A stretch of 64,000 bases of DNA, from the IMG/VR virus record IMGVR_UViG_3300037515_000188, positions 1-64,000 of that record. One strand, written 5' to 3'. Source of the stretch: a virus. This document shows positions 1 to 57,597 of the stretch, in pieces. The notes beneath the pieces are model-generated. The model ran no database searches. It worked only from the letters and a program-made list of their open reading frames with translations, and was not told where the DNA came from. How positions within the stretch are numbered: position 1 is the stretch's first letter; each line of letters begins with the position of its first letter. The position numbers were made by a program, and so were the translations under genes.

Positions 1-3000
1 CTTATCTGTATAATAATGTTATTAATTAATTGATCCACTACATGTTTTATAATAACGTAAGTCTTTATTAATTGAAAAACTTTTATTTGCGGTGTATGAT
101 TATTAGTTTTAACAAATCCATATGGATGCGTGGAATAAACTGTTAAAATTTTCATAGTTAAATTTGTTTATTTTCTGCTATATTACTATATCAATGCACT
201 TTTTATTAAACCAAATATTTATCCAGATGTTTGACCATAATGGATATAAATATTCTCTCATATCAAATACTATAGTATCTAATTTAGTGTCTAATTTAAT
301 ATAAGAATCCGTTTTAATTTTTGTTAAAATATTATTTAAAATATGTCTATTTATAGAAGTTAAAATTTTCATTTTATAGTAGACCATATATCCAGACGTA
401 TTGGTTGAACAAATTGTTTTATGTTTCTTTGTATATCATTTAATCTAAAATACAAACCAATATATATTAATTTATCATTTCTTATTTTTTCTAAAATTTT
501 ATCTGTAACTGTAATATCAGTATGTTTTAATTTTAAGGGTCTCATTTTAATTTACAATAAATTATAGTATATATCAATACGTATATTATATCTATTAGTT
601 TCATTATTATTGAATTTTTATATTTTTAAGAATAAAACATTGTTTCTTCCATAATAATAATTTTTAATCTTCCAATAAATGCATCCAATGGTTGCAACCA
701 ATAATAATTTCCAAAGTGTGGATAACGTGGTAGTTTGTCATACGTATTATTTTTAAATTTTAAAATTTTCATATTTTTCAATAGGTTAGTTTACTTTTTC
801 CCTAGCTGGTAAAGAATTATAATCATATAAAAAATTTCGTACAATGGAACGTAAATCCCATAATGATCCTATTATAGTTAATTGTGATTGCTTGTTTTGT
901 CCAATTAGATTCCATAATGTATAATATACATTAGACCCGATACAGGATTTAAGAGTAAATTTTAAAATTTTCATATTTTTTAATAGGTTAGTTTATTTCT
1001 CTAACGAATAAGGAACTATTTCTGCTCTAATATTAGTCAATAATGGTTCAGTGGATAAATGTATTAACTTCCATAATGATGATAATGTTGATAGTTTTAA
1101 AACTCTTTTTTTATTTGTAATAATATACATTGCATCACCCATTTTTTCATGTTGTAATTCATAAGGACTAATTAATTTCATTTTTATATTATAACATAAT
1201 GGACCAGTATATTTTAATTCATAAGGTTTAATTAATTTCATATGTTATTTTTTATTTAACTGAAACCAAATACTCAGACGTATTGGATATATAAGTTGTC
1301 TTATATTTGTTTCTATATTTCTTATTTTGGCATAATATGGTAATGATTCTTTATAAGTATAAAACTTATTATGTAGACTATACATATATCTTAATTTTAA
1401 AATTTTCATTTCAATTAAGTTCCGACACTCCATCATAATAGATTTGAAATGTATATTTTAGACTTCTTTGTCTAAGACCTATCTGTATTGCGATTGGTTG
1501 TGAATATGCCTCATGCAATGCCAGAAATTGCCATGCCAGAGCACGAGCCTGTGCCGGACCATAGAGTCCAGCAGCATGTAGTAGACTACCATGCAGAGAC
1601 GGAGCAGGTATTCCGGCAGCATCATTAGTATTCTTAACAGGTATTTCTTTCCATGGATGAGTGGGATTTTCTCTATATACAGGTTCCCATCCGGTTATCG
1701 TTCCTTCCGCATGATCCGGAGTCATTTTAATTTTTCCAATATAGCATATAATTTTTTGGCGCAATGTCGGCATGCAGCAATATAACCTGCCCCATATAAT
1801 GGACCAAATGGGTTTTCATCCATGATAAAAGTGTTACATTTATCAGCAAATTCCTTTATTTCATTTTGTACTTCATCGAGTATGGTTTTTAAGTTTTCAG
1901 TCATGGTATTTTTCCTCTGTTGAATTAATTATAACATATAGAATAGTGTATTTAATAGATATTATATCATGACTGAATATTTTAGTATATATTTTTTCCA
2001 TTTCTGCAAATGATAGTGGCGAGTTAAAAATAATTCTTTTTTTATATGGATTAAAAATTAGTGTATTTAAAATTTGCATAAAGTTTTTCAGTGATATTTC
2101 TTTTTAAGTTGGATAATGATAATAATATCTCTCGTTTCATATTGAATATATTAGGTGGGGAAACTATTATAGTATATAATATTTCATCTTTTTTATAAGA
2201 TGGATTAAAAATTAATGTATTTAAAATTTTCATCTTATAAATATAACATAATTAAAATAATAAATCAAATCGTGGTTAATGCTTCCGATATCATATAGAA
2301 TTTATTATTATGGAAAGTATTCGAGATGTTTTTGTGTTAATATGATTGAATAGTCTAATACCTGATAATCCTGATAATCTTTCATTAAAAATAAGTTTCA
2401 TTTTCGTTCCTTCGTAATATCTGTTATAAACTAATGTATTCAAGATTTTCATTTTAATTGCATATATTCGATAATATTATTTTTAAGTTGGAAAGTATGA
2501 TCAAGTATTTTTTTCTCTATTTTTGATACTATGGAAAATTTATTCATGGATAATATTTGTTGTCTTTTATTCTTCCATATATAATTGTCTATGTTCGTAT
2601 GTATTATGGATTCTAAAATTTTCATAATGTAAGTCTAATATAATGGAAAGAATAAATCAATATATTTTAAAGCTAAATATCTAAAAATATTATGTTTTAA
2701 AGGTACTATATCATGAATATTTATTTTATCATATATATTTCTATTTTTTGTTATAAGTGATATTAAATATAAGTTAATACCAATTCGGTCTTTATTTGAT
2801 GGGTCATATATTAATGCGTTAAGTATTTTCATATTTTTTAGAACTGATGCGGTATCTGACACGTCCTGCTAATATATCCAATAGTGCATATCTATTAAAA
2901 TTTGTTCCGATGTTAATTTTGCAGTTAATATATTCATTAACATAAATTTTTATTTGTGTTATTAAATTGCTCATAATGTCAAATTCAGTATTGATTATTT

Positions 3001-6000
3001 TTCTATTTTTTCTTAATATATTAATATTAAAAATTTTTGGAATACTCCATTTACCTGTATCAGTATAAATTTTAGGTTCGTATATTAATGCGTTAAGTAT
3101 TTTCATATTTTTGTGTTTCTTGCCATATAATATTACGCAGTGGCATTATTATATTATATATATCTTGATATATAGTTCTAGTGTTTCTTGCCATATAATA
3201 TTACGCAGTGGCATTATTATATTATATATATCCTGATATATAGTTCTAGTCTTTGATGATGGATAATTAATAAATATATCAGGATGTATTATGGATTTTA
3301 AAATTTTCATATTATGAGTTTAACAAAATAGAAAGAATAAATCAATATCTAATAATAGTGTATTTTAAAGATATTATATCATTCATCCGCATATGGAAAA
3401 GTGTTTTACTATATATATTTTGTCGTTTCGCCATTGGTAAAGATAAATTAATGACGAAATTATTTTTATTGGAGTGATTATAAATTAATGTATTTAATAT
3501 TTTCATAATAAATCAGTTTCTTGAAGTATTGCTAAAAAAATATTCCATTTCATGGTCCCTATAATAGATATTCTGTCATCGGAAGTTATTAAAGAACGTA
3601 TCCTTTCCGATAGTTTGGAAATTAATAATTCATGAAAGAATAATTGTTCAGTTGCGGGAATGATATTTAATATTTTCATGTTTTGTTATAATTTGATGCA
3701 TGTTCATTAGTAGTGGAAATATTATATCATAAATGTAAATAAATACTTTGTCATTAGTTATTATCTGGCTGGTTAATGATAAGGGTAATTCATAACTTAG
3801 TATTTTTTTATCGTATATACGAAAGGTTAATGAGGTTAATATTTTCATTATATACACTGTTTAAGAATAATGTGTTTTAAACCTAATATATCGGAAATAG
3901 GGGAAATTATTTTAGTATATAATTTTTCATCTTTCTTTATAATTGATTTAATAATAATTATTTTTTCATAAGATGGATTAAAAATTAATGTATTTAAAAT
4001 TTTCATAATAATAATTGATAATAGAGATAATTTAATAATAATTCTTTTTTCATAAGATGGATTAAAAATTAATGTATTTAAAATTTTCATAATATATATA
4101 TTTTAATATGGAAAATAAATAAATGAGTTTATTTTTCGTAATATATGCATACGTATTGGATATATTTGTTGTTTTATATTTGTTTGTATATCTTCTATTT
4201 TATGATATTTGAAACAATGTCCTTCATTATATGATGAATAAATAAATTTATGTATATATTCATACCATACGGAACCTGCATATAAATTAAGTTGTAAAAT
4301 TTTCATAATGATATGGAGTCTATAATATTGTTTTTAATCGGAAGAATATGAGCATCTATCGTTTGCTCTATAGTTACCATAGTCTTAAAATTATTCATGC
4401 CAAACATCTGTGATCCTATATTTTTCCATAAATAATTGTCTATTTTATTTATGGTTCTTAAAATTTTCATGTTATTCTTTGTGTATATTTTCTATTATAT
4501 TACGCCATATTGGAATTATTGCATGATATACATAATTAAACACATTCATATTAACGTTAAATGTATTTGCCGGAATATTAGATGGTAGTCCAATAAATAT
4601 AGTTTTTTGTATATTAATATCTAATTTATTACATGATAAATCATTTAATATTTTCATTATGATATTATAACATGATATTGATAATGAATCAAATCATAAT
4701 TGAGGAGAAACATATCTAAGAATAGTATATTTTAAAGATATTATATCAAGAATGGAGTCAATATATATTTTAGTATATACTTTTTGCATTTCTGGCAATG
4801 ATAATACATATAAATTAATAGTACTTTCTTTTTGGTAAGCTGGATTATAAATTAATGAATTAAGTATTTTCATGATTTTTTATAAATTCTATAATGTTAT
4901 TCTTCAATATGATGGATACGATATCATATATTTTTACTTCCATATTTGTTATTCCAAACACGATATATTGGTCAGATAGTTTCATATTGAGCATAATATC
5001 TATTCTATTATATATGATAGATTCTAAAATTTTCATCTTATAAGTATAACATAATGGAAATAATGAGTCAAATATTGATTATATAATGAATAGTGAAATG
5101 GGAGATATTATAGATCAATCTAATTTTTTACATATATAATGAATAGAGATGTGGGGTGTAGTGGTATTATGTGGGAAATATTGGAAATCTATTGGGGGAT
5201 GTATTGAAGAGTTGGGGAGCTTAGTCCGCCTTCAATCTCTCATTAATATTTCAAAAATTTTATCTTTTAAAAGTCCCCGTATATTAATCATATCATTATA
5301 AAATTCGTAAAATTTATATGTATAAAATTCAGGTGATACTACCATAGGTGGCTCTATTTTCCATATATCCTTGTTGTTAATGTGTAATTTCAAAATTTTC
5401 ATAATATTTCATTAAAAGTCCCCATATATTAATACGTAATTTAATCATATCATTTGATAATTCTGATGTATAAAATTTAGATGTTACTAAAATAGCTGGT
5501 TTTATTTTCCATATATGCTCCCATATATGTTTCTTCCATTCTCTGGTATTATGTAATTTCAAAATTTTCATAATATTTCATTAATTTTATCTCTTAAAAA
5601 TCCCCATATATTAATATGTAACTTAATTATATTATCATTAAAAAATTCAGATGTATAAAATACAGATGCTATTTTAATATATAGGTCTATTGCCCATATA
5701 TGTTTATTTATTTCTTTATTAATGTGTAATTTCAAAATCTTCATAATTTTAAAACTCTCATAATTTCATTGTATACGTAATTGCGCAATCCATATACAGT
5801 ATTATAAAATTCAAGAGTTAATGTAGGACATATATAATATTCCACCATCTCTTTTAGTTCAATTTTTTGAAATTTCAAAAGTTTCATTTATGTTATAAGT
5901 ATAGCATAATAGAGATAATAAGTCAATTTATTTTTTCATATTTTTCAATAAGTTAGTTTATTTTTTCCCTAGCCAGTAAAGAAATAATTTATAGAATTAT

Positions 6001-8752
6001 TTTTTATTGGTGTGATGGATATATGAATTGGTCTCCATATTGTTTTCATTTCTAAATTAAATTTTTCTGACGCCAATGCATCCCAGCAGTTAAACTGTTT
6101 TTTATTCAAATTTTTTATTATATTATATAAATTTATTGATTCTAAATTTTTCATATTTTTCAATAGGTTAGTTTATTTTTTCTCAGGAGAATAAAATATT
6201 GTTTCTTTTATAATAATAATTTTTAACCCTCCAATAGATGTAGTTACTGGTAGTAGTATATAATTATATGTTCCAAAATATTGATAATATGGTAATTTGT
6301 TATACGTATTATTTTTGAATTTTAAAATTTTCATATTTTTCAATAAGTTAGTTTATTTCTTCTCGGGGGGAGTAAAACATTATTTCCTCTGCAAGAATAA
6401 TTTGTATCAATCCAAATTGGGTGTATAATGAACTCCACAATACTGTTAATTTTTTATTTAATGGATATGTACCGGGGACTTCAGGAATATTCATACTGAT
6501 AAGTGTATCGTTTATATGTAATGTTTTTAAAGTTTTCATAATCTATTAATTAACTTTGAAAATTTTATATCTAAATCTTCATATATATGATTACGTAATG
6601 AATTGGTCGCAACATTTATTTTCTGAAACATATTCAATGATAGCCAATAATTTTTTAACCCACCAATACTTATATCATTTCCTTTAATTTTTAATTTTAA
6701 AATTTTCATATTTTTCAATAGGTTAGTTTATTTTTTATCAGGATAATAAAATATTGTTTCTTTCATAATAATAATTTTTAACCCTCCGATAGATGTAATT
6801 AACTTTGAAAATTTTATATCTAAATCATCATATAAAATAGCAAGGAATGGATTTGTTGCAGCCTCTATTCTATGAAACATCTTTATCGCCAACCAATAAT
6901 TTTTTAACCCGCCAATACGTATATCATATCCTTTATTTTTTAAATTTAAAATTTTCATATTTTTCAATAAGTTAGTTTATTTTTTCCCTAGCTGGTAAAC
7001 AACCATTTCTGCTCTAATATTAGTCGTTAATGGTTCAGTGGATGAATATATTAAGTCCCATAATACACTACGTAGTAGTATTGGCATTTCCAATAATTTA
7101 TAATGTATATTAACACGTATATTGTATTTATTATTTTCCTTAGTTCTGAATTTTAAAATTTTCATAACTTTCAATAATGTTTATATTACTAGTTTTTAAT
7201 GGATAGACTGATATGAATACTGAATTCCATATGCTAGCTGGTTCATCATGTATTTCAACAAATGAATTTATATTACTCATTTTTATAGTATTGAATAGAT
7301 TTATAGATGTTAAAATTTTCATATTCTGTTATCACTAATTTAATAACATGTTTTAATACACTTATTTCATCAAATACAATAACTGAAATAATATTTGCAG
7401 TATCTACAGAATTTATTGTTAATTTATTAATTAAAGTATTATACCATAAAAATTCCGGCTTTTTAATTGATTTTAAAATTTTCATATTTTTCAATAGGTT
7501 AGTTTACTTTTCTCAGTGGGGATAAATAATTATTTGTTCTATAATATTAATTTGTAATATACCTACTGGAAAGGATATTAAATTCCATAATTTTGCCAAT
7601 GATCCTTCATGTATTATATCAAATGAATGGATATTACTCATTTCAATAGTATATAATAAATTAATTGATTTTAAAATTTTCATATTTTTCAATAGGTTAG
7701 TTTACTTTTTCCCTAGATGGTAAAGAATTATAATCATATAAAAAATTTCGTACAATGGAACGTAAATGCCATAATGATCCTATTACATACATTTGATTAT
7801 TATATTTAGATGACCATATTGTATAATATACATTATAACCAATACAGGATTTAATATTACATTTTAAAATTTTCATAAATTTCATCTACAATATTAGATT
7901 TTATCGAAGAAGTATACACATATATTTTCTTCCATATTTTTTTGTTTATTGTAAATGTATTAGATTCCCATAAGGTATAATATGTATCATACCCGATACG
8001 GGATTCAAAGTTAAATTTTAAAATTTTCATAAATTTCATCTACAATATTAGATTTTATCGAAGAGGTATACACATATATTTTTTTCCATATCCTTGTTTT
8101 TATTGTAAATTTAGATATATCGGGTCTAAATTTTAGATTATAAAGATTAAGTACTTTCATATATTATTTTGGTTTAATGTAATTTCCCGTTTTATATATG
8201 ATGTTAAAATATTAAATATAAAACCTAACTGTGACGACATTGCCGTTAACATGATTTTTTTATTAAGTGAACATGAATTTAAATTTGTAATTTTACATTT
8301 TATTTTAAATGCATTATCATTTTTTGAATGGGTAAGTGTTTTCATTAATCTGCTAGTTCTACTCTAAAATGTAAATTACAATTGGAGCATTCATAATTTG
8401 CATAATCACCACCACCGGTTAATCCATAATAATCATCATTGACATGATTGGCATCCGGATGTAGCCACCAGCCATTGTCACCCTTTGGCATGGGAGAATT
8501 TTTGAGCATATATTTCTTTGTTGCATTTTTGTATTATAACATAATGGATAATTAATGTAAAGAAAATGTTTTATGCAATTTTATACTTATGGATCGAATT
8601 TCATTTGTTATATGAAATTTTATATTGTGTAATGAAATATTGTGTAATGAAACATGTGTCAGTCGAGAAAAATTATTTTGTGTTTTATTCATATCATATA
8701 CTGCATCACCCAGTTTTGCATATATTAAATCATAAGGATTAATTAACTTCAT
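1..8752 (-). CDS. Array 1: ~40-45 tandem micro-ORFs (45-95 aa) of a hypervariable MK[ILT][IL] family
   Basis: ORF track plus shorter ORFs visible as recurrent (a/t)tttcat starts on the + strand. Starts are MKILK/MKILN/MKLI, stops overlap or abut the next start, and many pairs are paralogous. Confidence 0.75.
1411..1725 (-). CDS. hypothetical protein interrupting array 1 (likely start MTPDHAEG)
   Basis: Higher-GC ORF, not of the MK family; ATG overlaps the stop of 1722..1904. Confidence 0.6.
   Translation of the reverse strand: MTPDHAEGTITGWEPVYRENPTHPWKEIPVKNTNDAAGIPAPSLHGSLLHAAGLYGPAQARALAWQFLALHEAYSQPIAIQIGLRQRSLKYTFQIYYDGVSELN
1722..1904 (-). CDS. hypothetical protein
   Basis: 60-aa ORF preceded by GAGG. 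Confidence 0.65.
   Translation of the reverse strand: MTENLKTILDEVQNEIKEFADKCNTFIMDENPFGPLYGAGYIAACRHCAKKLYAILEKLK
3113..3248. repeat. 68-bp tandem duplication inside array 1
   Basis: 3113-3180 and 3181-3248 are near-identical. Confidence 0.9.
8345..8526 (-). pseudogene. small Cys-containing protein, apparently frameshifted in an A5 run
   Basis: The promoter-proximal ATG (8526) gives MQQRNICSK. The continuation NSPMPKGDNGWWLHPDA...YECSNC...ELAD* is in another frame (8345..8509). Confidence 0.45.
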
Positions 8753-8961
8753 TTTTATATTATAACATACTAAGTAATTGATGTAAAGGACGATTTTTCA
8801 GTTTTCAAATGGAAAACCCTAAACGATTTTTCCATTTTGGTTTTCAAAACCCTAATTGTTTTTAATTAATTTATGTAATCTTTAATTCATGAATTGTTAA
8901 TGATTAAAAACTCGTTAACAGAGTATTGACAAATTTATTTAATTATGTAATACTATATTAT

Positions 8962-9195
8962 ATGAAAGATAGTAATAAATTTCCATTATACTTATATGGA
9001 CCTTGTGACGAGGTAAATATAGTTCCTGTAGTGGGAGATACTATTGCGATTATGATATATTCCACCAGAGTATCGTTTAAGATCGTGACTGATGTTATAA
9101 CCGATGAATATGGATATATTACTATATGGGTAGCGGGTGATAAACAATATCGTTTATCTGAATGTTTTATTATACGATATGAGGAAATTAATTAA
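8962..9195 (+). CDS. hypothetical protein (probably leaderless)
   Basis: TTGACA...TACTAT immediately before ATG 8962; followed by a terminator. Confidence 0.7.
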   Translation: MKDSNKFPLYLYGPCDEVNIVPVVGDTIAIMIYSTRVSFKIVTDVITDEYGYITIWVAGDKQYRLSECFIIRYEEIN

Positions 9196-9230
9196 TTTAT
9201 TTGATTTCATATAAGGACATGGTTAAATTT

Positions 9231-9255
9231 TAGGACAGGGAAGTCCTTTTTTTTA
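9231..9255 (+). terminator. intrinsic terminator
   Basis: aggac-aggga-agtcct hairpin followed by a T run. Confidence 0.6.
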
Positions 9256-9760
9256 TTATAGTTAATTTATAAATTCTTTATATTCTATATTTTATATTGT
9301 AGTTTATATTATCATTAATCATTCCATTGGATATTATTAATGTTAATAATGATTCCATTGGAAATTCATTTATAATTTTTTAGTGGTGTGGTGTTATACT
9401 GTACTACAACACCAGTGTTGTTTTTTGCCACATATGGTGGTAAAAATACCACGGAATTTTAGTTCTGTTGTTTTTTTGCAACAGCTATGACAAAATAACT
9501 CCGGAACAACTATTCTGTTGTTTATTTGCAACATGTGTTGTAGTTATACCACACTTGTCTCGTTTTTGCAACTCCTTGTTGTTTATTTACAACAAATTTA
9601 TTTAAGATAAGCGAACCCCTTCCAGCGGGACGCTAGAATGATGATGATACTTACAGTATACCATAATGTAAAGATTATTTCAATGGGTTGACAAGATTGA
9701 TTTATTATGGTATTATATAGATAATGGGAGATATGAGTTTTCTAAAAGTTAAAAGCACAG

Positions 9761-9847
9761 ATTTCCCCCTGCTCGTGGCCTTCTCTCCGATGCTTCGCAG
9801 TCCTGTTGTTTATTGTTGGGAGCGGACTACTTCTTCTTCGACTTCAA
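9761..9847 (-). ncRNA. conserved 87-nt element, copy 1 (putative sRNA)
   Basis: Near-identical at 20500-20586 and 42574-42660. A - strand TTGCAT..TGgTATAAT promoter lies directly upstream; GTAGTCC/GGACTGC stem. Confidence 0.6.
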
Positions 9848-9944
9848 AACCATTATACCATAATAAGCAAAAAAATGCAAGGTGGATTTTTACTTTTATT
9901 TGTGATATGATAGGGGTTCTCAAAGTTGAAAGGAATTGATTGAA

Positions 9945-10109
9945 ATGAATGAAAACAAAGATACCTTAGATCATTTGGAAATGTGGCTTGCTTGTGAACC
10001 AGCGGATGAATATTGTACTGTAAGTTGGATGCGACAGATCGCTGCTGATTGGCGTGAAGAACGTTATCAATTTGAAGCATTTGAAAAACTAGTTGATAAA
10101 AATTGGTGA
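9945..10109 (+). CDS. hypothetical protein (54 aa), weakly similar to the N-terminus of 49164..49478
   Basis: MNENKDTLDHLEMWLACEPADEY...ADWREER vs DALDRLIEWINQEPEDK...RDWTKDR. Confidence 0.55.
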   Translation: MNENKDTLDHLEMWLACEPADEYCTVSWMRQIAADWREERYQFEAFEKLVDKNW

Positions 10110-12159
10110 AAACATTAAAATTTAAATATATTTATAAGCTTCCTAGAATTACTAAATATTATTATAGTAATACTAATAATATTAATTTGGTCTTTTTACA
10201 ATTACATTATGATAAATTAGGAAATGTTGTAGGTAATCAGGTATATGAGCAATTAAAATTTCCATTATTGCAAGAGTTAGATAATGATAATAGAATTATA
10301 TTAAAAGGTACTGCATATAGAATTATATTAAAAGGTACTGCATGATATGAAAATTTTAATTGATAATAATAATTTGCAGGATTTTGATAATATTAGACAA
10401 TTGCTAATTAGAAATCATAAAAATAAATATTTTGATATGTATTTATTATATGAGACTGGAGTATTTTATAATCTTGGTTCATTGTGTGATATACTCCGAG
10501 AATCAATTGATGAAAACAATTGTTTTTAAAAATATGAAACAGTATTATGATATATGTTTTTCTAATGAGATATTTAGAAACTTATTAGGTACTAAATTAA
10601 GTGCTGGAATTAGTATTGAAATGAATCCTGTTAAAATTTCAATTGTTCAAATATTGTGTGAACAAATGAGAATGATTAATGAAACTAATAAATTCAATTC
10701 TTTCTAATTATGGTGATTTACCGCACTATAGTTTCTATAGTATAATTAAAAATTCAATAGGAGTTACAACATGTGTTTCAACATATAGTAAAATTCATAA
10801 TCAGTTACATCAATTGTATGTAATATGGTTAAATATATCTTGTGAAATGGAAAATTATTTTAGTGGGGAGAATTGATTAATGAAAACAATAAATTCAATT
10901 CTTACTGATTATGGTTATTTACCACATTATAATTCCTATCTTACAGTTAAAAATTCAATAGGAGTTACAACATGTGTTTCAATATATGGTGAAATTCATA
11001 ATCATTTATCTCAATTATATATATTATGGTCGGATATATCTTGTGAAATGGAAAATTATTTTGGTGGGGAGAATTGATTAATGAAACTATTAAAATTTAC
11101 ATATACTCATAATCTTCCTACCGTTCCTAGATATTATTATTGTTATATTACAATTGCGCACTCAATAGGAGTTACAAAATGTAATTCAATATATAGTAAA
11201 ATTCATAATCAGTTACGGCGACGGAATATATTATGGTTTTATATATCTTGTGAAATGGAAAATTGTTTTTTTATGCGGAGAATGATTAATGAAAATTATA
11301 AACACATTAAAATATTATGCCTGTTTTCATTACATTAGGTTCATTATGTAATATAATTAAAGAAGTAATTAATGAAAGTCATCCCTATTAAAAATATACA
11401 ACGTTGTTATTATGGGGCATATTGTTATTATGGGGTATATAATAATATTGAAAGATTAATAAGTAGTAAATTGTGTATTAACATTAATTTTAGAGTATAT
11501 CCTGTTAAGAGTTCAGTTGTTCAAATATTGGATGATCAAGTGAGAATGATTAGTGAAAACAATAAATTCAATTTTTGCTAATTATGATGGTTTAGTTTAT
11601 TATCATTACTGTATTACAGTTGAGAACCCAATAAGAGTTACAAAATATAAATCAATATATGATGAAGTTCATCATCAGTTGCATCGGCGCAATATACTAT
11701 GGTATGATATATCTTTTGAATTATGGTATAATATATCTTGTGAGATAGAAGAGTGGAAAAATTATTAATGAAGCCGTTACAATTACCTGCTCCTTGTTTA
11801 TTAGAATATTATTATGATATAATAATTAAAAAACTAGTGAAACCGGAAAAAATTAATTTAATAAAGAATACATTTGATTCGATAGAATATAGTCCTATAT
11901 TAATACTTGCTGAGATTACAAATAGGTTTAAACAATTAAAAATTATTCTAATATTATGAAAATTATAAACACATTAATGTATAATATAGAATTACGAAAA
12001 AAGATATATACAATTATACAAGAATATGATAAAAAATATGCATCCATGCGGTTTCCTTCTGTTCCGTATGATACAAATGATTCAGTTTCTAATAAGATGT
12101 ACCCGTTTACAAATATTGTAGTGGACGAATTATTAAGAATAATTCATAAAAGATATTGA
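10103..12159 (+). CDS. Array 2: ~11 tandem MK[TLIV][IL] micro-ORFs
   Basis: 10679, 10880, 11081 and 11553 are clear paralogs (SIGVT..SIY..IH.QL....LW..ISCEME); overlapping ATGA junctions. Confidence 0.75.
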
Positions 12160-12235
12160 CAAATAAAATAATTTAATATAATATGAAAAATAATATCATG
12201 AATTTTATAATATTTTTGTAAGTTTAAAAAAACAG
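12157..12235 (+). mobile_element. internally deleted IS607/TnpB-type miniature element (left end with promoter fused to right end)
   Basis: 5' half aligns with the promoter end of the 20061-20226 element; tatttttgtaagtttaaaa (12211-12229) is identical to 13709-13727. Confidence 0.5.
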
Positions 12236-12290
12236 TTGACAATTTAAAATTAATTTGGTAATATACATTTAACATTAAAAAGGTAAACAT

Positions 12291-13199
12291 ATGGAAATTT
12301 CAGAACAAGTGCTAGAAAGTTTAAGAACCGAGTGGATTGATATTGGTTTTTCTACTGGTGATGTAGATGTGGAAAAGGCTAAGCCTTATATTGAAGAAAT
12401 TTATCGCAATGGTAAATTCGATCCACCTGAATTTTATTTTGTAGTTAGTTCTCCTATTGAATTGCTGCAATATAAAACAGTGTTGGAAACTCTTGATCTT
12501 GATGTCCTTCGTAAATCGAATGATCCTTATAAGTTGGTTGCCAAAAAGGCTAAAAAAATAACCAATATTAAACTTGATTATGAACAAATCTGTTTTGGTA
12601 ATCATGATGCCGCAAGCTTGGCATTTTATGATTATTTTGTTCGTTATGAACATGTTGATGGTATCGAACCCATTGTTCCATTTATTGAACTTGCAAAAGT
12701 ATGTGGATGGTGGATTCCATTAGACGGAGCGGTTATTCTTACCAATTTACCAACATCCATTAAAAAGGATGATGAAGGTAGATTGCATTGTGATAACGGT
12801 CCTGCCATTTCTTATGATAACAGTGATTTTGAAGTGTATATTTGGCATGGAGTAAGAATTCCTCCTGAGTGGATCAGAGACAAGAGTTTAACTGCTGAAC
12901 AGGCATTAAAACATCCACAAATAGAACAGCGTAGAGCCGCATGTGAAATTTTAGGGTGGCACAATGTTTTGGAACAGCTAAATAGTATTATAATCGATGA
13001 TCATGATGATGAAGAGATTGGTACATTGATAGAAGTTGAAATACCTGATATTGGAACTGAAAGATTTCTTAAAGTGAAGTGCGGTACCGGAAGAATATTT
13101 GCCATTCCTGTCCCGCCAGATATTAAAACGGCCCTAGAAGCAAATGCATGGACTTATGGGGTTGCGGCAAATGATTACATACCGGAGATTAGAACATGA
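12291..13199 (+). CDS. DUF6745-family protein
   Basis: Motifs FGNHDA..LAFYDYF, CGWWIP, DDEGRLHCDNGPAI, WHGVRIP, EQRRAACEILG, C.TGR.FA.PVPP. Confidence 0.8.
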   Translation: MEISEQVLESLRTEWIDIGFSTGDVDVEKAKPYIEEIYRNGKFDPPEFYFVVSSPIELLQYKTVLETLDLDVLRKSNDPYKLVAKKAKKITNIKLDYEQICFGNHDAASLAFYDYFVRYEHVDGIEPIVPFIELAKVCGWWIPLDGAVILTNLPTSIKKDDEGRLHCDNGPAISYDNSDFEVYIWHGVRIPPEWIRDKSLTAEQALKHPQIEQRRAACEILGWHNVLEQLNSIIIDDHDDEEIGTLIEVEIPDIGTERFLKVKCGTGRIFAIPVPPDIKTALEANAWTYGVAANDYIPEIRT

Positions 13200-13549
13200 G
13201 AACATTTAAGAACTGTGCAGCACAAGGCGATATTTTGATTACCAAAATTGAGTCTTTGCCTGAAAATATAGTAGAAGTAGCACCGACGGAAACAGGTGTG
13301 CATATCGTTGCCCATTCGGAAACAGGGCATCATCATGTAATTACATGTGATGACGTTGACTATTTTCATGCCGCAAATAATGATGATATGGATGGTTTTG
13401 TATCATATTTGCGCGTGAATAAAGAGACAACGCTTCGTCATTTGCGCACCTTTGATACCCATGAGCCAATTAAATTTCTTAAAGGCTTATTCAGGTTAAA
13501 TCGTCAGCGGGAATATGTAGCTGAAGGTTTCCGTAAAGCTCAAGATTAA
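13196..13549 (+). CDS. His-rich partner protein usually adjacent to DUF6745 genes
   Basis: AQGDILI, AHSETGHHH, H.THEPI, RQREY motifs; ATGA-coupled to the upstream gene. Confidence 0.75.
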   Translation: MRTFKNCAAQGDILITKIESLPENIVEVAPTETGVHIVAHSETGHHHVITCDDVDYFHAANNDDMDGFVSYLRVNKETTLRHLRTFDTHEPIKFLKGLFRLNRQREYVAEGFRKAQD

Positions 13550-13598
13550 TTTTTGACTTTTTAATTAAAATAATATCGACAGTGCTTACTGTCGATTG

Positions 13599-13733
13599 AA
13601 AATATACCGGGAGTTTCTCGGGATTTTAAGCCTGCGGAGAACGGAGTTCACTGAATGAAAATTTGGTTAGCTGTTCAATGAAACAGGAATTTAACGGAAA
13701 ATATAAATTATTTTTGTAAGTTTAAAAGAACGG
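13599..13733 (+). mobile_element. TnpB omega-RNA-like right end / IS607-type miniature element (no tnpB)
   Basis: ACCG(T/G)GAGTT..GGATTTTAAGCCTGCGGAG...ATGAAACAGGAA...AAGTTTAAAAGAACGG resembles the tnpB 3' tail (T-V-S-S-T..A-C-G-E..M-K-Q-E) and an IS607-like GG end. Confidence 0.7.
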
Positions 13734-13789
13734 TGTAATGAATCGGATCATATAATCCCTAAACAGATGAAGTTATAGGAAATATATTT

Positions 13790-13918
13790 ATGTCTCAGAC
13801 AGAAGAAGTTCGATTAATGGTTGAACGAAGAAAGGCGCAGGCTGAAGAAAAAAGGGTTCGTAAGGCACAAAAAAGATTACGAGATTCAAAAAAAATAAAA
13901 CTAAAGAAGTTTAATTGA
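13790..13918 (+). CDS. small basic protein (42 aa)
   Basis: MSQTEEVRLMVERRKAQ...; its leader is a duplicate of the 14007 gene leader. Confidence 0.5.
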   Translation: MSQTEEVRLMVERRKAQAEEKRVRKAQKRLRDSKKIKLKKFN

Positions 13919-14006
13919 TTAAATCTAATTAATTTTTACTTGCTTAAAACCAGTAAATATGATATCATATAATCCCTAAACAAATGAAATTATAGGAACT
14001 ATATTC

Positions 14007-15113: not shown

Positions 15114-17558
15114 ATGAAGTTACATACTGAAAATCGATCATTAGAATCCGCTGGAATGAATATCAGCGTTGATTTTTCCGTTAAGATGAACGGGAAAGCA
15201 TTCAATGTATTGTCCAGTGGCGTTTATTCCGATGCAATTTCTTCAATCGTTAGAGAACTTTCATCTAATTGTTGTGATTCTCATATTGCTGCTAGAAAGG
15301 CTGATGTGCCATTTGAGGTATATTGTCCTACTGGATTCGATCCATATTTTGCGGTAAAGGATTTCGGTACTGGTCTGAGATATTTTAAATATCATGGACG
15401 GGTTAAATGTGAAATTGATGGGGAATCAACCATTTGTATTTCTGGTGATATCAGGAATACAATTGCTAATATCCGTGTGGTAATCCTTAACGGAAATACT
15501 ACGGTAGGAATTACTACGATTCTATATGATAACACTGCTGATGAAACAATTTTTCGTATTCCTTTAACCTTAAAGAATAATTCCACTATAGATGTGGAAT
15601 TTGATGATGCGCTGGTTTTGTACAGCACATATTTTGAATCGACCAAAGAGGATTCCAATGATTTTATTGGAGCCTTTGGATTAGGGTCAAAGACTCCATT
15701 TGCATATACTGATAATTTTATTGTTATTAATCGTTATAATGGTATTGCTCGCACTTATAATATTTTTACAAGTGAAAATGGAGTACCGCAAATTAATTTA
15801 ATGGGAATGTCCAATACTGATGAATGTAATGGACTGGAAGTTAAATTATCAATAGCAAATGATGACCATATTAAATTTAAAAATGCGATTAAAGAACAAT
15901 TGAAGTTTTTTGATCCACTTCCAAAAATTTATAATGATACAATTAATTTTCCAACAATACTTCATAAAGGTGAAAATTTCATCTTAATGGATGATACAGA
16001 AGTATCTGTTGATAATATGTATTATCGTGGATATAATGTAGTTATTGGGAATAATGCATATAATATACCATATAATGTTGTTTCCTTATCCAAGATTTTT
16101 AAACATAAACTTGTATTACGCTTGGATATAGGTGAAGTTATGGTAACAGCTTCTAGGGAAGCGATTAAAACTGATGAAGTTACTCGTGATATTATTATTG
16201 AACGATTCAACCGTGCTACCGAGGAATATACCAATTATATTCTGGATATGATTAGCAGGGATGATATGCTGGATTATGAAAAGGCTATTTTCTTAAATAA
16301 TAATTCTGATAGTATTGATCTTGATTTGGATTCCGTTCATAAGAATGTTGGTAATCCACATTATTTATATAACTCAAATGAAATAAGTATTCCTGTTAGT
16401 TTATGGGGATCATATATTTCTTTTGATTATACAGAAAAGGAAACTACTGATTTTTATGGTAATATTAAAACCGCATTCACAGTTAATCATGCGAGAGCAA
16501 AATATGTAAGTAGTGTTTGGTATGAATATGATTTGAATAAGAATAAATCAAAAAGAATTGGTTTAGGACAAAAAGAATGGGTTAATTTTTCTCCGCAATC
16601 TACATATCTTGTATTTATTCGAGATGATGCATATGCGTTTCATAAAAAAATTACTCAATATTTTGATACTAATAATACTAGTAAATGCAATAAAATTTTA
16701 ATAGTCGATTCATTTATAGAGGACGTTAATATTGAAGCTATTAATGAATTAGTATCATTTAATACTACATTTGTTAAGTTATCTGATATTAAATTACCTA
16801 AGACAGCTAGGATAGCGTGTAGTAATAAGTCTACTACTCCAATTGCCCGCATATTTACTATAGGAAAAGATAGCGGTTATATTTTTTCACGATTGACTGA
16901 TTGGGGTACGGTATATACATCGCTTAAAAAAATTGAAAATGAGAATGCATATGTCGTATCAAGTTATAGAGATAAATTTGATAATATTCAATATAATGAT
17001 ATAATGTTTTTCCAGACTAGTATTACTCTGGGATTAATTGATAAAAGAATTGAAATTTATGCTGTTCCCAAAGCAAAATATGAAAAAGCTGTTAAATATG
17101 GATTTAAACCTATTACTGATTTGATTAATGAATTAAAAACTAAATTTCATATACCAGTTGATTATGTAAATTATTTAGCGTTGAAAATTTTAATAGATGA
17201 TATTAATAAGACGCATGACATTTTTAAACTTTTTAAACATTTTAATGATTCTGACTGGAATAAGATTAATACAAATACCAATCTTTATATATTACATCGA
17301 ATTGTTGAAATATTTGAAAAAAGATATTTGAAAAAAGGAAGTATTTTCAATGATATCAAAAAATTAAGTAACTATATGGATACTGGTTGTATTCCAGAAC
17401 AAAGTGAGTTTGTAAAAAAGACTATTGACAAAGTAGCAGAACTTTGTTATGATGTAACTAGTTCAATGTTACTTTTAAATAACATTAATCATTATAGTTT
17501 TGGTGATAATGATGAAGAAAGAGATGCATTGATTAAATACGTAAATTTTATTGGTTAA
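15114..17558 (+). CDS. rIIA: RIIA-like protein (GHKL ATPase N-terminus)
   Basis: VRELSSNCCDSH, F.VKDFGTGL, YF.STK..SND.IG.FGLGSK.PFAYTD, V..SRE.I; adjacent to rIIB. Confidence 0.92.
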   Translation: MKLHTENRSLESAGMNISVDFSVKMNGKAFNVLSSGVYSDAISSIVRELSSNCCDSHIAARKADVPFEVYCPTGFDPYFAVKDFGTGLRYFKYHGRVKCEIDGESTICISGDIRNTIANIRVVILNGNTTVGITTILYDNTADETIFRIPLTLKNNSTIDVEFDDALVLYSTYFESTKEDSNDFIGAFGLGSKTPFAYTDNFIVINRYNGIARTYNIFTSENGVPQINLMGMSNTDECNGLEVKLSIANDDHIKFKNAIKEQLKFFDPLPKIYNDTINFPTILHKGENFILMDDTEVSVDNMYYRGYNVVIGNNAYNIPYNVVSLSKIFKHKLVLRLDIGEVMVTASREAIKTDEVTRDIIIERFNRATEEYTNYILDMISRDDMLDYEKAIFLNNNSDSIDLDLDSVHKNVGNPHYLYNSNEISIPVSLWGSYISFDYTEKETTDFYGNIKTAFTVNHARAKYVSSVWYEYDLNKNKSKRIGLGQKEWVNFSPQSTYLVFIRDDAYAFHKKITQYFDTNNTSKCNKILIVDSFIEDVNIEAINELVSFNTTFVKLSDIKLPKTARIACSNKSTTPIARIFTIGKDSGYIFSRLTDWGTVYTSLKKIENENAYVVSSYRDKFDNIQYNDIMFFQTSITLGLIDKRIEIYAVPKAKYEKAVKYGFKPITDLINELKTKFHIPVDYVNYLALKILIDDINKTHDIFKLFKHFNDSDWNKINTNTNLYILHRIVEIFEKRYLKKGSIFNDIKKLSNYMDTGCIPEQSEFVKKTIDKVAELCYDVTSSMLLLNNINHYSFGDNDEERDALIKYVNFIG

Positions 17559-17572
17559 ACACGGAGAATTTT

Positions 17573-18826
17573 GTGAATACTGCATATACAATCACTGATA
17601 AAAGTATTGTACTTATGATTGATGGTAAAACTCAGATAATCAATCGAACTGATGATAGATTTTCTGATGTTTATGATGCCATTCGAGATAAGAATTTTGA
17701 ATCCATTCCTGCTATCCTTGATATTAAAGGTAAATTGATTTCTGATAGTTGTGGTGGATTATATTTATTGAACGGGGTACTTCATTGTAATGACTATAAA
17801 ATTGAGCCATTACTTGCGTCAAGAATTATTCGGATATATAAAGAAAGATTTGATCTTGTTCCAATTACGTTATTCCTTGAAAATCTTATGAGTAATCCAT
17901 CGGAACGTTCGAGGGAACAATTATATGGATTTATCGAAGCATGTAATTTACCTATTACTGCTGATGGGCATTTTCTTGCGTATAAAATGGTTACTTCGGT
18001 TTTTAAGGATATATATACTGGTACTATGGATAATAGTATTGGTTCAATTGTCGAAGTTCCTAGAGAAAATGTTGATCCTGATCCTAACAGAACATGTTCT
18101 AGAGGATTGCATTTTTGTTCTGAAGGATACCTTGGATCATATGGTACTAAAAGTTCATCGCAGGTTGTAATCGTGAAACTTAATCCGCGTGATGTAGTTT
18201 CTATTCCAATTGATTATAACAATGCCAAAGGTCGCGCATGTCGTTATGAAGTAGTTGATACTATTTCATGGGATGATAAAATCAAACCGTTATATACTGA
18301 TGAATATTCTGATAATGTATTAGAAGATAAATCGGAGTCTAATACTAATAAGCGGTGGGAACTTCGTCGTACTAGTGATGGGGAACTGATAGAAGCATTT
18401 ACTACTCGTGCGGAATCTCGTGTAGTTCGTAGAATAAATGGATATGATGACCATTATATATTAGATACGGATACTCAAGATGTTATAGCTGGGACTCCAT
18501 ATTCTGATTATCTTGATGATTACGAAGATGATGAATGTGTAGAGGAATATAATTACGCTGATGATGCCGATGACCCGGAATATAATGAAGATAACGATGA
18601 GGGGTATCTTGGTGATGATGAATATGAAGAGGAATATAATTGTGAAGATGACTATGAGACATATGAAGATGACGATAGTGATCTGCGATGGGTAGTTTAT
18701 AATATTCATGATGGTGGTACAATAGATTCATTTTATAGTCGAGTTGATGCTCGTGCTTTACGTAAAAGCTTAGGATACAGTGATTATTATATTTGGGATA
18801 GGATAAATAATAAAATTGTTGTATAG
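17573..18826 (+). CDS. rIIB: RIIB-like protein with an acidic C-terminal extension
   Basis: FLENLM.NPS, LPIT.DG.FLAYK, VD.DP.RTCS.GLHFCS, NP.DVVSIP.DYNNAK.R.CRYEVV. Confidence 0.92.
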   Translation: MNTAYTITDKSIVLMIDGKTQIINRTDDRFSDVYDAIRDKNFESIPAILDIKGKLISDSCGGLYLLNGVLHCNDYKIEPLLASRIIRIYKERFDLVPITLFLENLMSNPSERSREQLYGFIEACNLPITADGHFLAYKMVTSVFKDIYTGTMDNSIGSIVEVPRENVDPDPNRTCSRGLHFCSEGYLGSYGTKSSSQVVIVKLNPRDVVSIPIDYNNAKGRACRYEVVDTISWDDKIKPLYTDEYSDNVLEDKSESNTNKRWELRRTSDGELIEAFTTRAESRVVRRINGYDDHYILDTDTQDVIAGTPYSDYLDDYEDDECVEEYNYADDADDPEYNEDNDEGYLGDDEYEEEYNCEDDYETYEDDDSDLRWVVYNIHDGGTIDSFYSRVDARALRKSLGYSDYYIWDRINNKIVV

Positions 18827-51599: not shown

Positions 51600-54500
51600 A
51601 TGTATTATATATAATACATTAACCAAAACTATCTTATATTTTTTTTTAAAAAATTTTGATCCATTTCATCTTGCATTATCATTTTAATATCAGATAAATT
51701 ACTATCATAAACTAATTTACTGTATATCTTCCTACGGTAAGTAAAATGATCATAATATATCATGCGAGGATGTAATATCTTAAAATAACATTTATTAATA
51801 ATATGCATAATCTTAATTTATAAGTTTATCAATATTCAATAAAAAATTTTATTATTTTTTTAATTAACTATATATTAAAAATTTTTTTTACCAAAAAATT
51901 TCGATTTAATTCATTCTTTATCATCACTCTTATATCATTTAAATGAAATAATATATGATATAGATAATATGCTTTAGACTGATTATAATTTAATAGCGTA
52001 TGCTCAATATAAGCAATTGAATCATTATACCTATAAAAAATATCTTTAACAATATTCATCTTCTAATTCTTCCACTATTCGATCTATTAACTCCCCCAAA
52101 ATATCAGTAAAATATACAACATCATATAACAGAGAATCATCATAATTCAATGGTAAACGTATTTTATAATAAAAATCTACATCAAGTTGTTTATATATTG
52201 GTTTCATACTAAATTTATCCTCTAATAATTAATTACAAATTTGTCAATTTTACTAGAAAATTCAATAAATCTTATATATAATTTTTATTCTTATTTCATG
52301 ATTTATTATATTCTTTATTATATTTAAATCATTATCATACATTATTTTACTATACATTTTTCTCATACTAAGACTCCGAGGGGATAAGATATTAAAAATT
52401 AAAGTATCTTTAATGATTTTCATTTTTTCATTCTAATAATAATATCTTGCAAAAAATAATCAATAACATTTATCATCATCCATAATTTTATATCATTTTC
52501 AGATGGATATATCTCTTTAAAATCGTGCATCATTAATGCCAATTCAATATTAATTTTTAATGTGTTATAAATTAATTTCATCAAATTTCAGACTAATATT
52601 AATTTACTTGTAATTATATTCATATACTTCTATTTCTTTTAATATTATATCCCTAATATTCTGATTAAATAATACTTTATCATACAATAAAACCCAATAG
52701 TCCGGATATAAGTTATATAACCTTAATGGTAGTTCAATTACTTGTTTATAAATTATTTTCATCCATCGCATTCTTTATTATCATATTCTTTATTATATTC
52801 AAATCATTATCATATAAGAATCTATGATATAAATAATTTCCTTTAAAATTGAAATCATTATCAATATAAACAAATAAATCGTTATATCTATAAAAAATAT
52901 CTTCAATAATTTTCATCTTTTCCATTTTCCAATTATATAATCTATTACATAATCTTCTATTAATTCTTCTAATACTATATTTACTGGTTCCCATATAATA
53001 TTATTAAAATATATACCATCATATAAAAATAATGTTGTATTATAATTATTATCAATTAACATTAAACGTATTCTATTAAATACATCCATAGAAATTTTTT
53101 TATAAATCAGATTCATAAAATATATAATCCAATTCTTCCAATACTACATCCAACAAAAATTCTTGATCCCCCAAATCATACATCTGTAATAGTTCTGAAG
53201 AATAATAACCTCCATCATATAATGCCTGACTAATAATATCAATATTAAACTGTTGATAAATCAGGTTCATAAAACATATAATCCAATTCTTCTAATATAA
53301 TATCAATTAATGAGTCTTCTTGAATCCTCCACTCAATTAATGAGTCTTTAATCCTCCACAATAAATCATACATCTGTATTTTTTGATAATAATCATTATC
53401 AAATATAGATTGTTCAATAACATTAATATTAAATTTTTTATAAATCAATTTCATATATTTTTTTTCTTAGTTCATGATTTATCATATGCTTTATTATATT
53501 CAACTCGTTATTATATATTAATGTATGATATTTGGTATAAATAATTTCATCCAGATCAAACATATAATGTTCAAATGCATTAAATGATTTACCCTTTAAG
53601 AATATTATTTTTCCAATAGTTTTCATAAATTTTTTAATGATTCCAATATAGCACTCTTTAAACGTATTATATTCATCATAATAGTAAAATATATTACCTC
53701 TTCTATTTTTGCATACTTTTTTTCATGCGTCAGTATATACCTGCCATCACCATCCCATTGTATTTGTTTATATATTAGTTTCATATATTTTCAATTCATC
53801 CAATATGATATCGATCATTGATTCTGAGTCATGCCATATAATATTCTGTTGTACATAATTCCATGTAATATTTTGTTTCCTATTCATAAAATCATGTATC
53901 TGAAATATTTCTGAATGATACTCGGTAACGAATAACATGTATACCTTATCTACGATACTAGCAAATTGGACATGAATTTGTTTCATAATTGCAATTCATC
54001 CAATAATACTGTTCTTATACCCGTAAGTCCGGGAATATAGATTATACGATTTATTTTTATGCTTTTAGCATATAATAATGTATAGAATAAATTTCCATCA
54101 AATTTATTTAATTGTTTATATATTAGTTTCATATATTTTCAATTCATCCAATATGATATCGATCATTGATTCTGAATTATACCATATAATATAATCCCAT
54201 GTAATACTTTGTTGCTTGTTTATGAAATCATGTATCTGTAATACTTCCGGATGATACTCGTGACATAATAATATATAAATAGTTGGTCTTATTTTAACTA
54301 ATTGTTTATTAATTATTTTCATATAATTCATCCAACATATCATCCACTACTTCTAATGTAATTCTAAATCGAGTAATATTATATACACTATCCATATAGT
54401 GAGATAAATACATCATTGCATCATAATGATTTTCACTTAATGATGAATATATTTTATCAAATACATTTTCTTCAAATTGTTTATAAATTAATTTCATTTT

Positions 54501-57500: not shown

Positions 57501-57548
57501 TAAATCAAATATATATGTTATTTTTAATTTGTCGTTAATTAATTTCAT
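51600..57548 (-). CDS. Array 3: ~30 tandem micro-ORFs (MKLIY/MKII/MKTI family)
   Basis: ORF track plus shorter ORFs; C-termini ..I(L/I)(D/E)EL..YE overlap the next ATG; promoter TTGATA-17-TATAAT before ATG 57548. Confidence 0.75.
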
Positions 57549-57597
57549 AACTATTGTATTATACATTGTTTTTTTATTAATATCAATAAATACGTCT

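Follow-up and report, generated by a model that had tools for sequence, protein, structure and literature searches.

In T4-type phages, hyperplastic regions carry promoter-early stem-loops (PeSLs), motifs in the order stop codon, promoter, stem-loop, and start codon that serve as recombination handles (PMC2839356, PMC4122927). Recombination between PeSLs yields mini-circles (Arbiol et al. 2010, PMC2839356). Large tandem arrays of paralogues have been described in phages G and 121Q, where they were attributed to tandem duplication (Hua et al. 2017, PMC5646251). Here we describe array 1, a run of 41 paralogous mini-genes at the start of a 109,848-bp IMG/VR viral contig (IMGVR_UViG_3300037515_000188; CheckV completeness, ~47% of the genome); the window, the whole stretch analyzed, comprises bases 1 to 64000 of this contig. 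We conclude that array 1 is probably a birth-and-death multigene family in which general recombination at conserved translation-junction DNA has done the shuffling. Among published systems, the nearest parallel is the modular shuffling mediated by PeSLs (Arbiol et al. 2010, PMC2839356; Comeau et al. 2014, PMC4122927).

As with PeSLs, short conserved motifs in array 1 reach from the stop codon of a small ORFan to the start codon of the one that follows, lie in the early plastic region of an rIIA/rIIB-type phage, and offer homology for general recombination that deletes, inserts, and swaps small genes. PeSLs cluster in hyperplastic regions beside ORFans of T4-type genomes, and the array 1 ORFans likewise lie ~6 kb from rIIA/rIIB. 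The junction motif of array 1, however, contains no promoter, the eight or nine promoter cassettes being a separate class, and no stem-loop was found in either the junction or the promoter cassettes. In addition, the units are paralogues of one family, and half-genes have been exchanged besides whole genes. In its operation array 1 resembles PeSL shuffling, yet it lacks two of the features that define PeSLs.

Array 1 resembles the arrays of jumbo phages of the G and 121Q type in that a single family supplies tens of tandem genes to a large phage genome. Judged from their description, the genes in those phages are very similar to each other, whereas the members of array 1 share as little as about 12 to 20% identity, are visibly chimeric, and are associated with a defined junction repeat. 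The multigene families of African swine fever virus and the gene "accordions" of poxviruses also expand and contract by unequal recombination, forming paralogue arrays in terminal or plastic regions that undergo birth and death and are thought to serve host interactions. These are eukaryotic viruses, though, with larger genes and no shared junction module, and array 1 gave no evidence of copy-number change under selection.

RESULTS

Gene content of array 1

Array 1 comprises 41 family genes of 48 to 95 amino acids (aa) (median, 59 aa), one of which is truncated by the contig end, and is interrupted by three nonfamily open reading frames (ORFs). Nearly all family genes start with ATGAAAATTTTA (encoding MKIL), a motif that was found 32 times on the coding strand and never on the opposite strand, compared with 0.013 per kb elsewhere. 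ATG-initiated ORFs of at least 48 aa number 44 and cover 90% of the coding strand, and 40 of the array 1 ORFs match the family profile. Since 300 shuffled versions of array 1 had a mean of 1.0 such ORFs and a maximum of 4, the ORFs of array 1 are genes. Most of the ~40 gene boundaries are overlaps (−1 to −50 nt) or promoter cassettes, with a junction repeat at nine of them. Genes are lettered below in transcription order from position 8160 down (A3, A2, A, B, C, D, E, F', F, G, H, and I), and the coordinates of all features are collected in Table 1.

Chimeric genes and rearranged cassettes

By sequence comparison, at least three genes of array 1 (A2, F', and XE) are demonstrable chimeras. In a family-wide test, the N-terminal and C-terminal parts of all three had different best partners (z of 10 to 46 in each case), and therefore no single tree explains both halves. 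For A2, the N-half was nearest to A'/A (z of 10 to 15) and the C-half was nearest to A3 (z of 46); the gene arose through a 154-nt tandem duplication (7806-7959 and 7960-8113, 86 to 87% identical) with end points located mid-gene. F' follows F up to ...GTTAATTA and then H from CATCTAT onward through the junction, as seen in the matches of 6796-6985 to 6547-6736 (85%) and of 6694-6801 to 6139-6246 (93.5% over 108 nt), with the joint at a 6-nt microhomology, TAAYTA. An earlier sequence-only reading of this DNA had described XE as a mosaic of an N-half like that of the gene at 8552-8752 and a C-half like that of the gene at 6977-7174, and both relationships were found: 1131-1198 matched 8702-8769 at 88%, a segment comprising the promoter −10 element and the first 17 codons, and 961-1077 matched 6945-7064 at 84%. 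The 60 nt upstream in XE are a second copy of the start, and the former promoter is now translated there as ...LCYNIK. Weaker discordances were observed in the N- and K-subfamilies, but these were partly inflated because the C-terminal tails overlap the conserved start of the next gene.

Whole cassettes were also found in new contexts. Cassettes A, E, and H each occur twice with different neighbors: A precedes B whereas A' precedes H', E precedes F' whereas XE precedes A', and H comes after G whereas H' comes after A'. At each changed neighbor, the homology ends within the junction or start repeat. A' and A, which the earlier reading had related through their C-terminal halves, were homologous throughout (87%); the 3' 136 nt, which run through the junction into the next start, contained only 2 mismatches, the 5' half was ~78% identical with indels, and the longest exact run common to the two copies was 50 nt. 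In A/A' as in E/XE, the tract of high identity starts at the mid-gene motif ATTATGG (the "LW" hinge). Two other relationships proposed from the sequence were likewise recovered, a segment of 51 nt at 86% identity common to 1245-1436 and 4103-4306 and a tandem pair at 6536-6718 and 6728-6967 (190 nt at 85%). At 550-1241 the genes run E(C-half)-A'-H'-E(N-half), an arrangement in which E is circularly permuted and which fits either a trimmed old tandem duplication of E-A-H or the reinsertion of a circle opened inside E. The earlier proposal that recombination at junctions and within genes built the mosaics is thus upheld by the new neighbors of A, E, and H and by the discordant halves of A2, F', and XE.

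A stop-spacer-start repeat at gene junctions

A search with the pattern AAACTAACYTATTRAAAAATATGAAAAWTTTA, allowing up to 3 mismatches, returned nine matches on the minus strand, the number given in the sequence-only reading, and none in 100 shuffles. The repeat spans ~32 nt from the stop of one gene through a spacer to the start of the next, with start-to-start spacings of 202, 4965, 215, 180, 375, 249, 527, and 198 nt and with 13, 18, 27, or 29 nt between the upstream stop and the next ATG. It had been thought to separate single variable gene bodies, which was correct for five of the eight intervals; two others hold two or three genes linked by overlaps, and one holds the remainder of the array.

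Together with the preceding gene tail, the junction forms ~54 nt of DNA (repeat family D3) whose copies are 91 to 98% identical and are read in three frames. The reading frame of A and A' ends with ...SLPSREKVN at the second TAA, that of E ends with ...VYQLGKK at the first TAA, and that of I ends with ...FFTG at TAG. The conservation is therefore at the nucleotide level and not at the protein level, and the junction module has been joined to the gene bodies ahead of it in every frame. In 8 of 8 copies, the junction RNA was less structured than shuffled sequences (z of +0.14 to +1.48) and showed no hairpin, and the repeat contained no consistent −35/−10 pair. A T4-type late promoter was considered and rejected, as the junction reads ATAAACT or GTAAACT and not the ATAAATA motif of this phage. 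The copy after gene I, with its MKK* stub (5928-5939), is a scar bordering two sectors of array 1.

Tandem duplications and scars

Tandem Repeats Finder confirmed the two fresh tandem duplications reported from the sequence alone (3113-3254 and 3950-4122) and called a third that was absent from that list (Table 1). Periods ranged from 15 to 201 nt, and those of at least 60 nt (68, 84, 154, and 201) were found only in the mini-gene arrays, except for the internal repeats of a DUF285 protein (63505-64000). A perfect in-frame 15-nt duplication (2.1 copies; ...SLHNISLHNI...) at 8622-8652 on the minus strand, inside the gene at 8552-8752, shows that very recent small duplications occur within coding sequence too.

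Scars comprise the startless E fragment, the MKK* stub, and the out-of-frame 68-nt duplication, and joints were located at the junction, at the 7-nt mid-gene motif, and at the 6-nt microhomology. The varied joints, the junk products, and the many duplication periods argue for untargeted events followed by selection.

Array 1 in independent assemblies

Exact-sequence queries with 29 array proteins against JGI/Logan assemblies found every one of them letter for letter on 2 to 6 independent contigs, including the chimeras F' (5 contigs), XE (4 contigs), and A2 (6 contigs) and the gene with the 84-nt duplication (4 contigs). The only variant among them was S57A in gene A (7697-7885), on an 8,052-bp contig. 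At this site, one of only two that differ within the 136-nt tract of A and A', the variant matches A', which hints at a gene-conversion footprint, the odds of a chance match being roughly 5 to 10% (an estimate, not a computed value). The identity of the C, D, A3, and A2 proteins implies that the adjacencies C to D, D to E, A3 to A2, and A2 to A are conserved, because the tails of the overlapping genes are translated from the first 26 to 50 nt of the next gene. Array 1 was stable on the scale sampled. The near-invariance of its proteins across contigs indicates that the shuffling was historical or slow and that array 1 is not a fast population-level diversity generator.

Promoter cassettes and translation

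Promoter cassettes of the form TTGAYT or TTTACA, 17 nt, and TGnTATAMT precede the starts at 8752, 8509, 5887, 5036, 4657, 3310, 2625, and 2233, and a remnant lies in the ORF at 993-1241. In 7 of 9 cassettes, the −10 element is exactly 6 nt from the ATG, and no conserved hairpin was found in them. With this spacing, the A of the ATG would be the first transcribed nucleotide, a leaderless geometry. Shine-Dalgarno (SD)-like cores were present at 1 of 42 family starts versus 35 of 71 large ORFs, against a background of 12%. The promoter geometry, the rarity of SD-like cores, and the unstructured junction RNA suggest that the gene chains may be translated without SD sequences, by a leaderless first gene and then by termination and reinitiation. 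Leaderless geometry with nearly absent SD cores is unusual for a phage of the rIIA/rIIB type that has SD sequences on many of its large genes.

The mini-proteins and their relatives

The family proteins are basic (median isoelectric point, 9.45), with no transmembrane segments. Their alignment has a conserved MKIL start, a variable middle, and a C-terminal [IL]xx[LI][KR]xNIxxxI motif, and in an AlphaFold2 (AF2) model made from it a short helix at the N terminus precedes a long one at the C terminus (predicted local distance difference test score, 74.7). Paralogue pairs had ratios of nonsynonymous to synonymous substitution rates (dN/dS) of 0.4 to 1.3, meaning relaxed or diversifying selection. 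Small size, early promoters, and rapid turnover would fit host-directed accessory proteins.

No match to family members was found in Pfam or PHROGs, no usable match to a family protein was found in the ESM Atlas, and a Foldseek comparison of the AF2 model with viral structures returned no hit below an E value of 5. The family profile had 22 matches among 1.84 billion representatives, all from the window's own proteins. A tblastn search of GenBank phages with two family members gave no match. An exact scan of IMG/VR and the JGI metagenomes for the junction and a search of IMG/VR with rIIA both failed to find relatives, and the family was in none of 80 metagenome loci with the neighboring DUF6745 gene (at most 58% identity).

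Genomic setting

The window encodes rIIA (15114-17558; 35 to 38% identity to rIIA of T4-like and jumbo phages) with rIIB adjoining it (17573-18826), T4-type RNA ligases 1 and 2, a HerA-like ATPase, and five tRNAs, and ATAAATA late-promoter-like motifs lie upstream of several large genes. No phage structural genes were found on the contig, and the virus is therefore named here an rIIA/rIIB-bearing large phage. At three places in the window the G+C content dips to 21 to 23%, each time with a mini-gene array; the three arrays together make up ~15% of the 110-kb contig. In the array at 10103-12159, four ORFs matched the array 1 profile (E values of 2e-6 to 0.03), a 201-nt tandem repeat (3.1 copies, 79%) was located at 10668-11302, and perfect in-gene duplications of 27 nt and 24 nt were observed. 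A hairpin of about −10 kcal/mol at 8800-8837 (minus strand), just 5' of the first promoter of array 1, lies in the divergent region separating array 1 from this array and may be a terminator or boundary element.

Within array 1, the adjacent nonfamily ORFs nf1 and nf2 (1411-1904) have a higher G+C content than the rest of the array and look like a foreign insertion; nf1 had no homologue among 5.8 billion clusters. A 190-nt spacer at 5041-5231, C-rich on the coding strand and unlike its surroundings, contained no family ORF and gave no Rfam match, and an Rfam search of 1-14000 (E value of 1 or less) found no structured RNA. Elsewhere, the contig encodes a full-length TnpB with OrfB_IS605 and Cas12f1-like TNB domains (68077-69240, minus strand) and a 576-aa product of an HNH homing-endonuclease-like gene (97026-98756, plus strand), and no link was found from either gene to the arrays. 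TnpB guide-RNA cassettes targeting the arrays were rejected, the flanking 16-mers of the cassette at 13599-13755 having no match in 1-12200 with up to one mismatch.

Table 1. Features of the mini-gene arrays
Feature	Coordinates	Strand	Description
Array 1	3-8752	minus	41 paralogous mini-genes
Smaller array	10103-12159	plus	~10 mini-genes, between array 1 and the DUF6745 gene
Further mini-gene array	51629-57566	minus	
Startless remnant of E N-half	550-626	minus	81% to 7086-7162, directly after H'
H'	626-772	minus	Second copy of cassette H (82%), without tail; downstream junction mostly deleted
A'	786-974	minus	Second copy of cassette A
XE	993-1241	minus	Chimera: 5' end and promoter −10 from a g01-type gene, then C-half of E with its junction
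nf1 (nonfamily)	1411-1725	minus	104 aa, ATGA-coupled
nf2 (nonfamily)	1722-1904	minus	60 aa, SD-like AGAGGA
F'	6728-6958	minus	Chimera: F body, then C-terminal tail of H with its junction
A2	7857-8039	minus	Chimera: N-half of A and C-half of A3
Junction, A' to H'	761-792	minus	Upstream gene stops at second TAA
Junction, XE to A'	963-994	minus	
Junction after gene I	5928-5959	minus	Followed by truncated start ATGAAAAAATAA (MKK*) and immediately by a promoter cassette
Junction, H to I	6143-6174	minus	
Junction, G to H	6323-6354	minus	
Junction, F' to F	6698-6729	minus	
Junction, E to F'	6947-6978	minus	
Junction, B to C	7474-7505	minus	49 nt 100% identical to the A to B copy
Junction, A to B	7672-7703	minus	
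Tandem duplication, 68 nt x 2.1	3113-3254		97%, fresh; not a multiple of 3; copies gene 3' end into spacer
Tandem duplication, 84 nt x 2.1	3950-4122		Doubles start and first 14 codons of gene 3848-4090
Tandem duplication, 154 nt x 2.0	7806-8110		86%
Promoter cassette	8759-8787	minus	TTTACA-17-TATAAT with TG, 6 nt 5' of g01 ATG
Promoter cassette	5898-5926	minus	TTGACT-17-TATACT with TG
Similar promoter cassettes	5043-5071, 4664-4692, 3317-3345, 2632-2660, 2240-2268, 8533-8561	minus	
Promoter remnant within ORF XE	1188-1217	minus	

DISCUSSION

We suggest that array 1 is a lineage-specific multigene family whose products are small, basic, and helical and which occupies a hyperplastic region, transcribed early, beside rIIA/rIIB. 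Eight or nine promoter cassettes of the sigma-70 type, 6 nt before the ATG, would give a leaderless mRNA for the first gene of each unit, and the downstream genes, lacking SD sequences, would be chained by overlaps or by the A/U-rich junction, where ribosomes may terminate and restart. Growth and diversification of the family, as recorded in the DNA itself, proceeded by tandem duplication and by unequal or illegitimate recombination. The near-invariant start region and the junction of ~32 to 54 nt act as portable homology patches through which whole cassettes gain new neighbors, and mid-gene joints produce chimeras of N-halves and C-halves. Recombination was presumably performed by the general recombination and replication machinery of the phage, with no site-specific enzyme, and selection would then retain the in-frame products while scars persist. 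The weakest step is function: the products may be accessory proteins that are made early and directed at the host, with selection on them relaxed or diversifying.

Several points weigh against this interpretation. With ~47% of the genome in hand, a recombinase or UvsX-like gene may sit in the missing half. The leaderless and reinitiation mode of translation is deduced from geometry only, and the empty Pfam/PHROG, fold, and Atlas searches leave protein function a guess. No relative carries the family, and therefore the events can be neither dated nor polarized. Finally, the junction is conserved beyond neutral decay although the adjoining gene bodies are unalignable, and it may have a role beyond translation.

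Among other explanations, we considered that recombination between junction or promoter copies might excise cassette circles, as PeSLs do, which are then reinserted in the array or in co-infecting relatives, making the junction a mobile cassette boundary. Mini-circles are documented for PeSLs in RB49/phi1 (PMC2839356), the recurrence of A, E, and H out of order is in their favor, and the permuted order around A' and H' is that expected from a reinserted circle opened inside E. The same order, however, results from tandem duplication of E-A-H followed by truncation, the gene downstream of the E fragment is complete and of the Y type, where a reciprocal chimera would be expected, and the family was seen in no other phage and showed no sign of horizontal exchange. 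We regard this explanation as unlikely, although it deserves some weight. A little less likely, and offered as speculation, is the idea that the ~54-nt tail-plus-junction is an evolved, frame-independent "universal cassette end" that combines stops in three frames, an unstructured reinitiation spacer, and the next start, so that any upstream half-gene could be joined to any downstream cassette, possibly via small circles, and still be expressed. If true, such an end would be the built-in route of this phage to new combinations of host-directed mini-proteins. A different view is that the mini-genes are selectively inert filler, in which runaway tandem duplication of AT-rich DNA under a head-full ratchet produced the mosaics as neutral by-products. 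The dN/dS values near 1 in several pairs and the lack of homologues or known domains would suit such filler, and genome growth through tandem duplication has been proposed (Hua et al., PMC5646251). It is hard to reconcile with 41 consecutive open frames in DNA of 22% G+C, where about one is expected, or with the conserved start motif, promoters, and coupling and the family-wide C-terminal helix motif, and we consider it very unlikely.

The sequence-only reading had likened the array to an integron or to an array of clustered regularly interspaced short palindromic repeats (CRISPR), with the junction as an attC- or CRISPR-repeat-like site at which a specific enzyme inserts, excises, or reorders protein cassettes and so generates combinatorial diversity. 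As in integrons, small cassettes in the same orientation are bounded by a repeated element with promoters upstream, and the nine near-identical repeats at a regular spacing of ~200 nt, the stops in all three frames within the module, and the reassorted neighbors give this proposal its appeal. No tyrosine or serine recombinase, integrase, resolvase, reverse transcriptase, RecA, GIY-YIG protein, or endonuclease VII was found in the 110-kb contig, which is ~47% of the genome, however: PF00589, the tyrosine recombinase family to which intI belongs, was absent while 14 of 14 controls were positive, and PF00078 (reverse transcriptase) was also absent. Nor is the junction an imperfect hairpin of the attC kind; it overlaps coding sequence and is missing from most gene boundaries, and the remaining joints fall mid-gene or at microhomology. 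Unlike a CRISPR repeat, it consists of a stop codon, a 13- to 29-nt gap, and the first codons of the next ORF, and the intervals are protein-coding genes of 150 to 530 nt in place of uniform noncoding spacers. A diversity-generating retroelement would require a reverse transcriptase and a pair of template and variable repeats, and the differences between paralogues here include indels and are not base specific. Scars, out-of-frame duplications, and proteins that are near-clonal between contigs are further points against a dedicated system, which we hold to be highly improbable. Least probable of all is an assembly artifact in which the repeats led the assembler to stitch chimeras or misplace the A'-H'-XE block. 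The contig does begin inside array 1, with the left part seen on 2 to 4 independent contigs and the right part on 5 or 6; the cassette copies, though, are diverged (78 to 87%) and hence distinct loci, the exact identity between A and A' is short, and the chimeras and the gene with the 84-nt duplication recur unchanged on 4 to 6 contigs. Overall, array 1 looks like ordinary duplication and recombination running unusually hard and not like a dedicated integron- or CRISPR-like machine.

With the parents and offspring of several chimeric genes preserved in one genome, array 1 offers an unusually legible record of how new small phage genes arise. The routes recorded are tandem duplications that end inside genes and exchange at a conserved stop-start module, which different genes read in three frames. 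The PeSL idea of regulatory repeats as recombination handles is thereby extended to a translational junction without promoter or stem-loop. Array 1 is also an apparent natural test bed for the SD-independent translation of long gene chains by a leaderless start plus reinitiation. The proteins of the three arrays match nothing known, and their binding partners would inform on a large unexplored class of phage accessory proteins.

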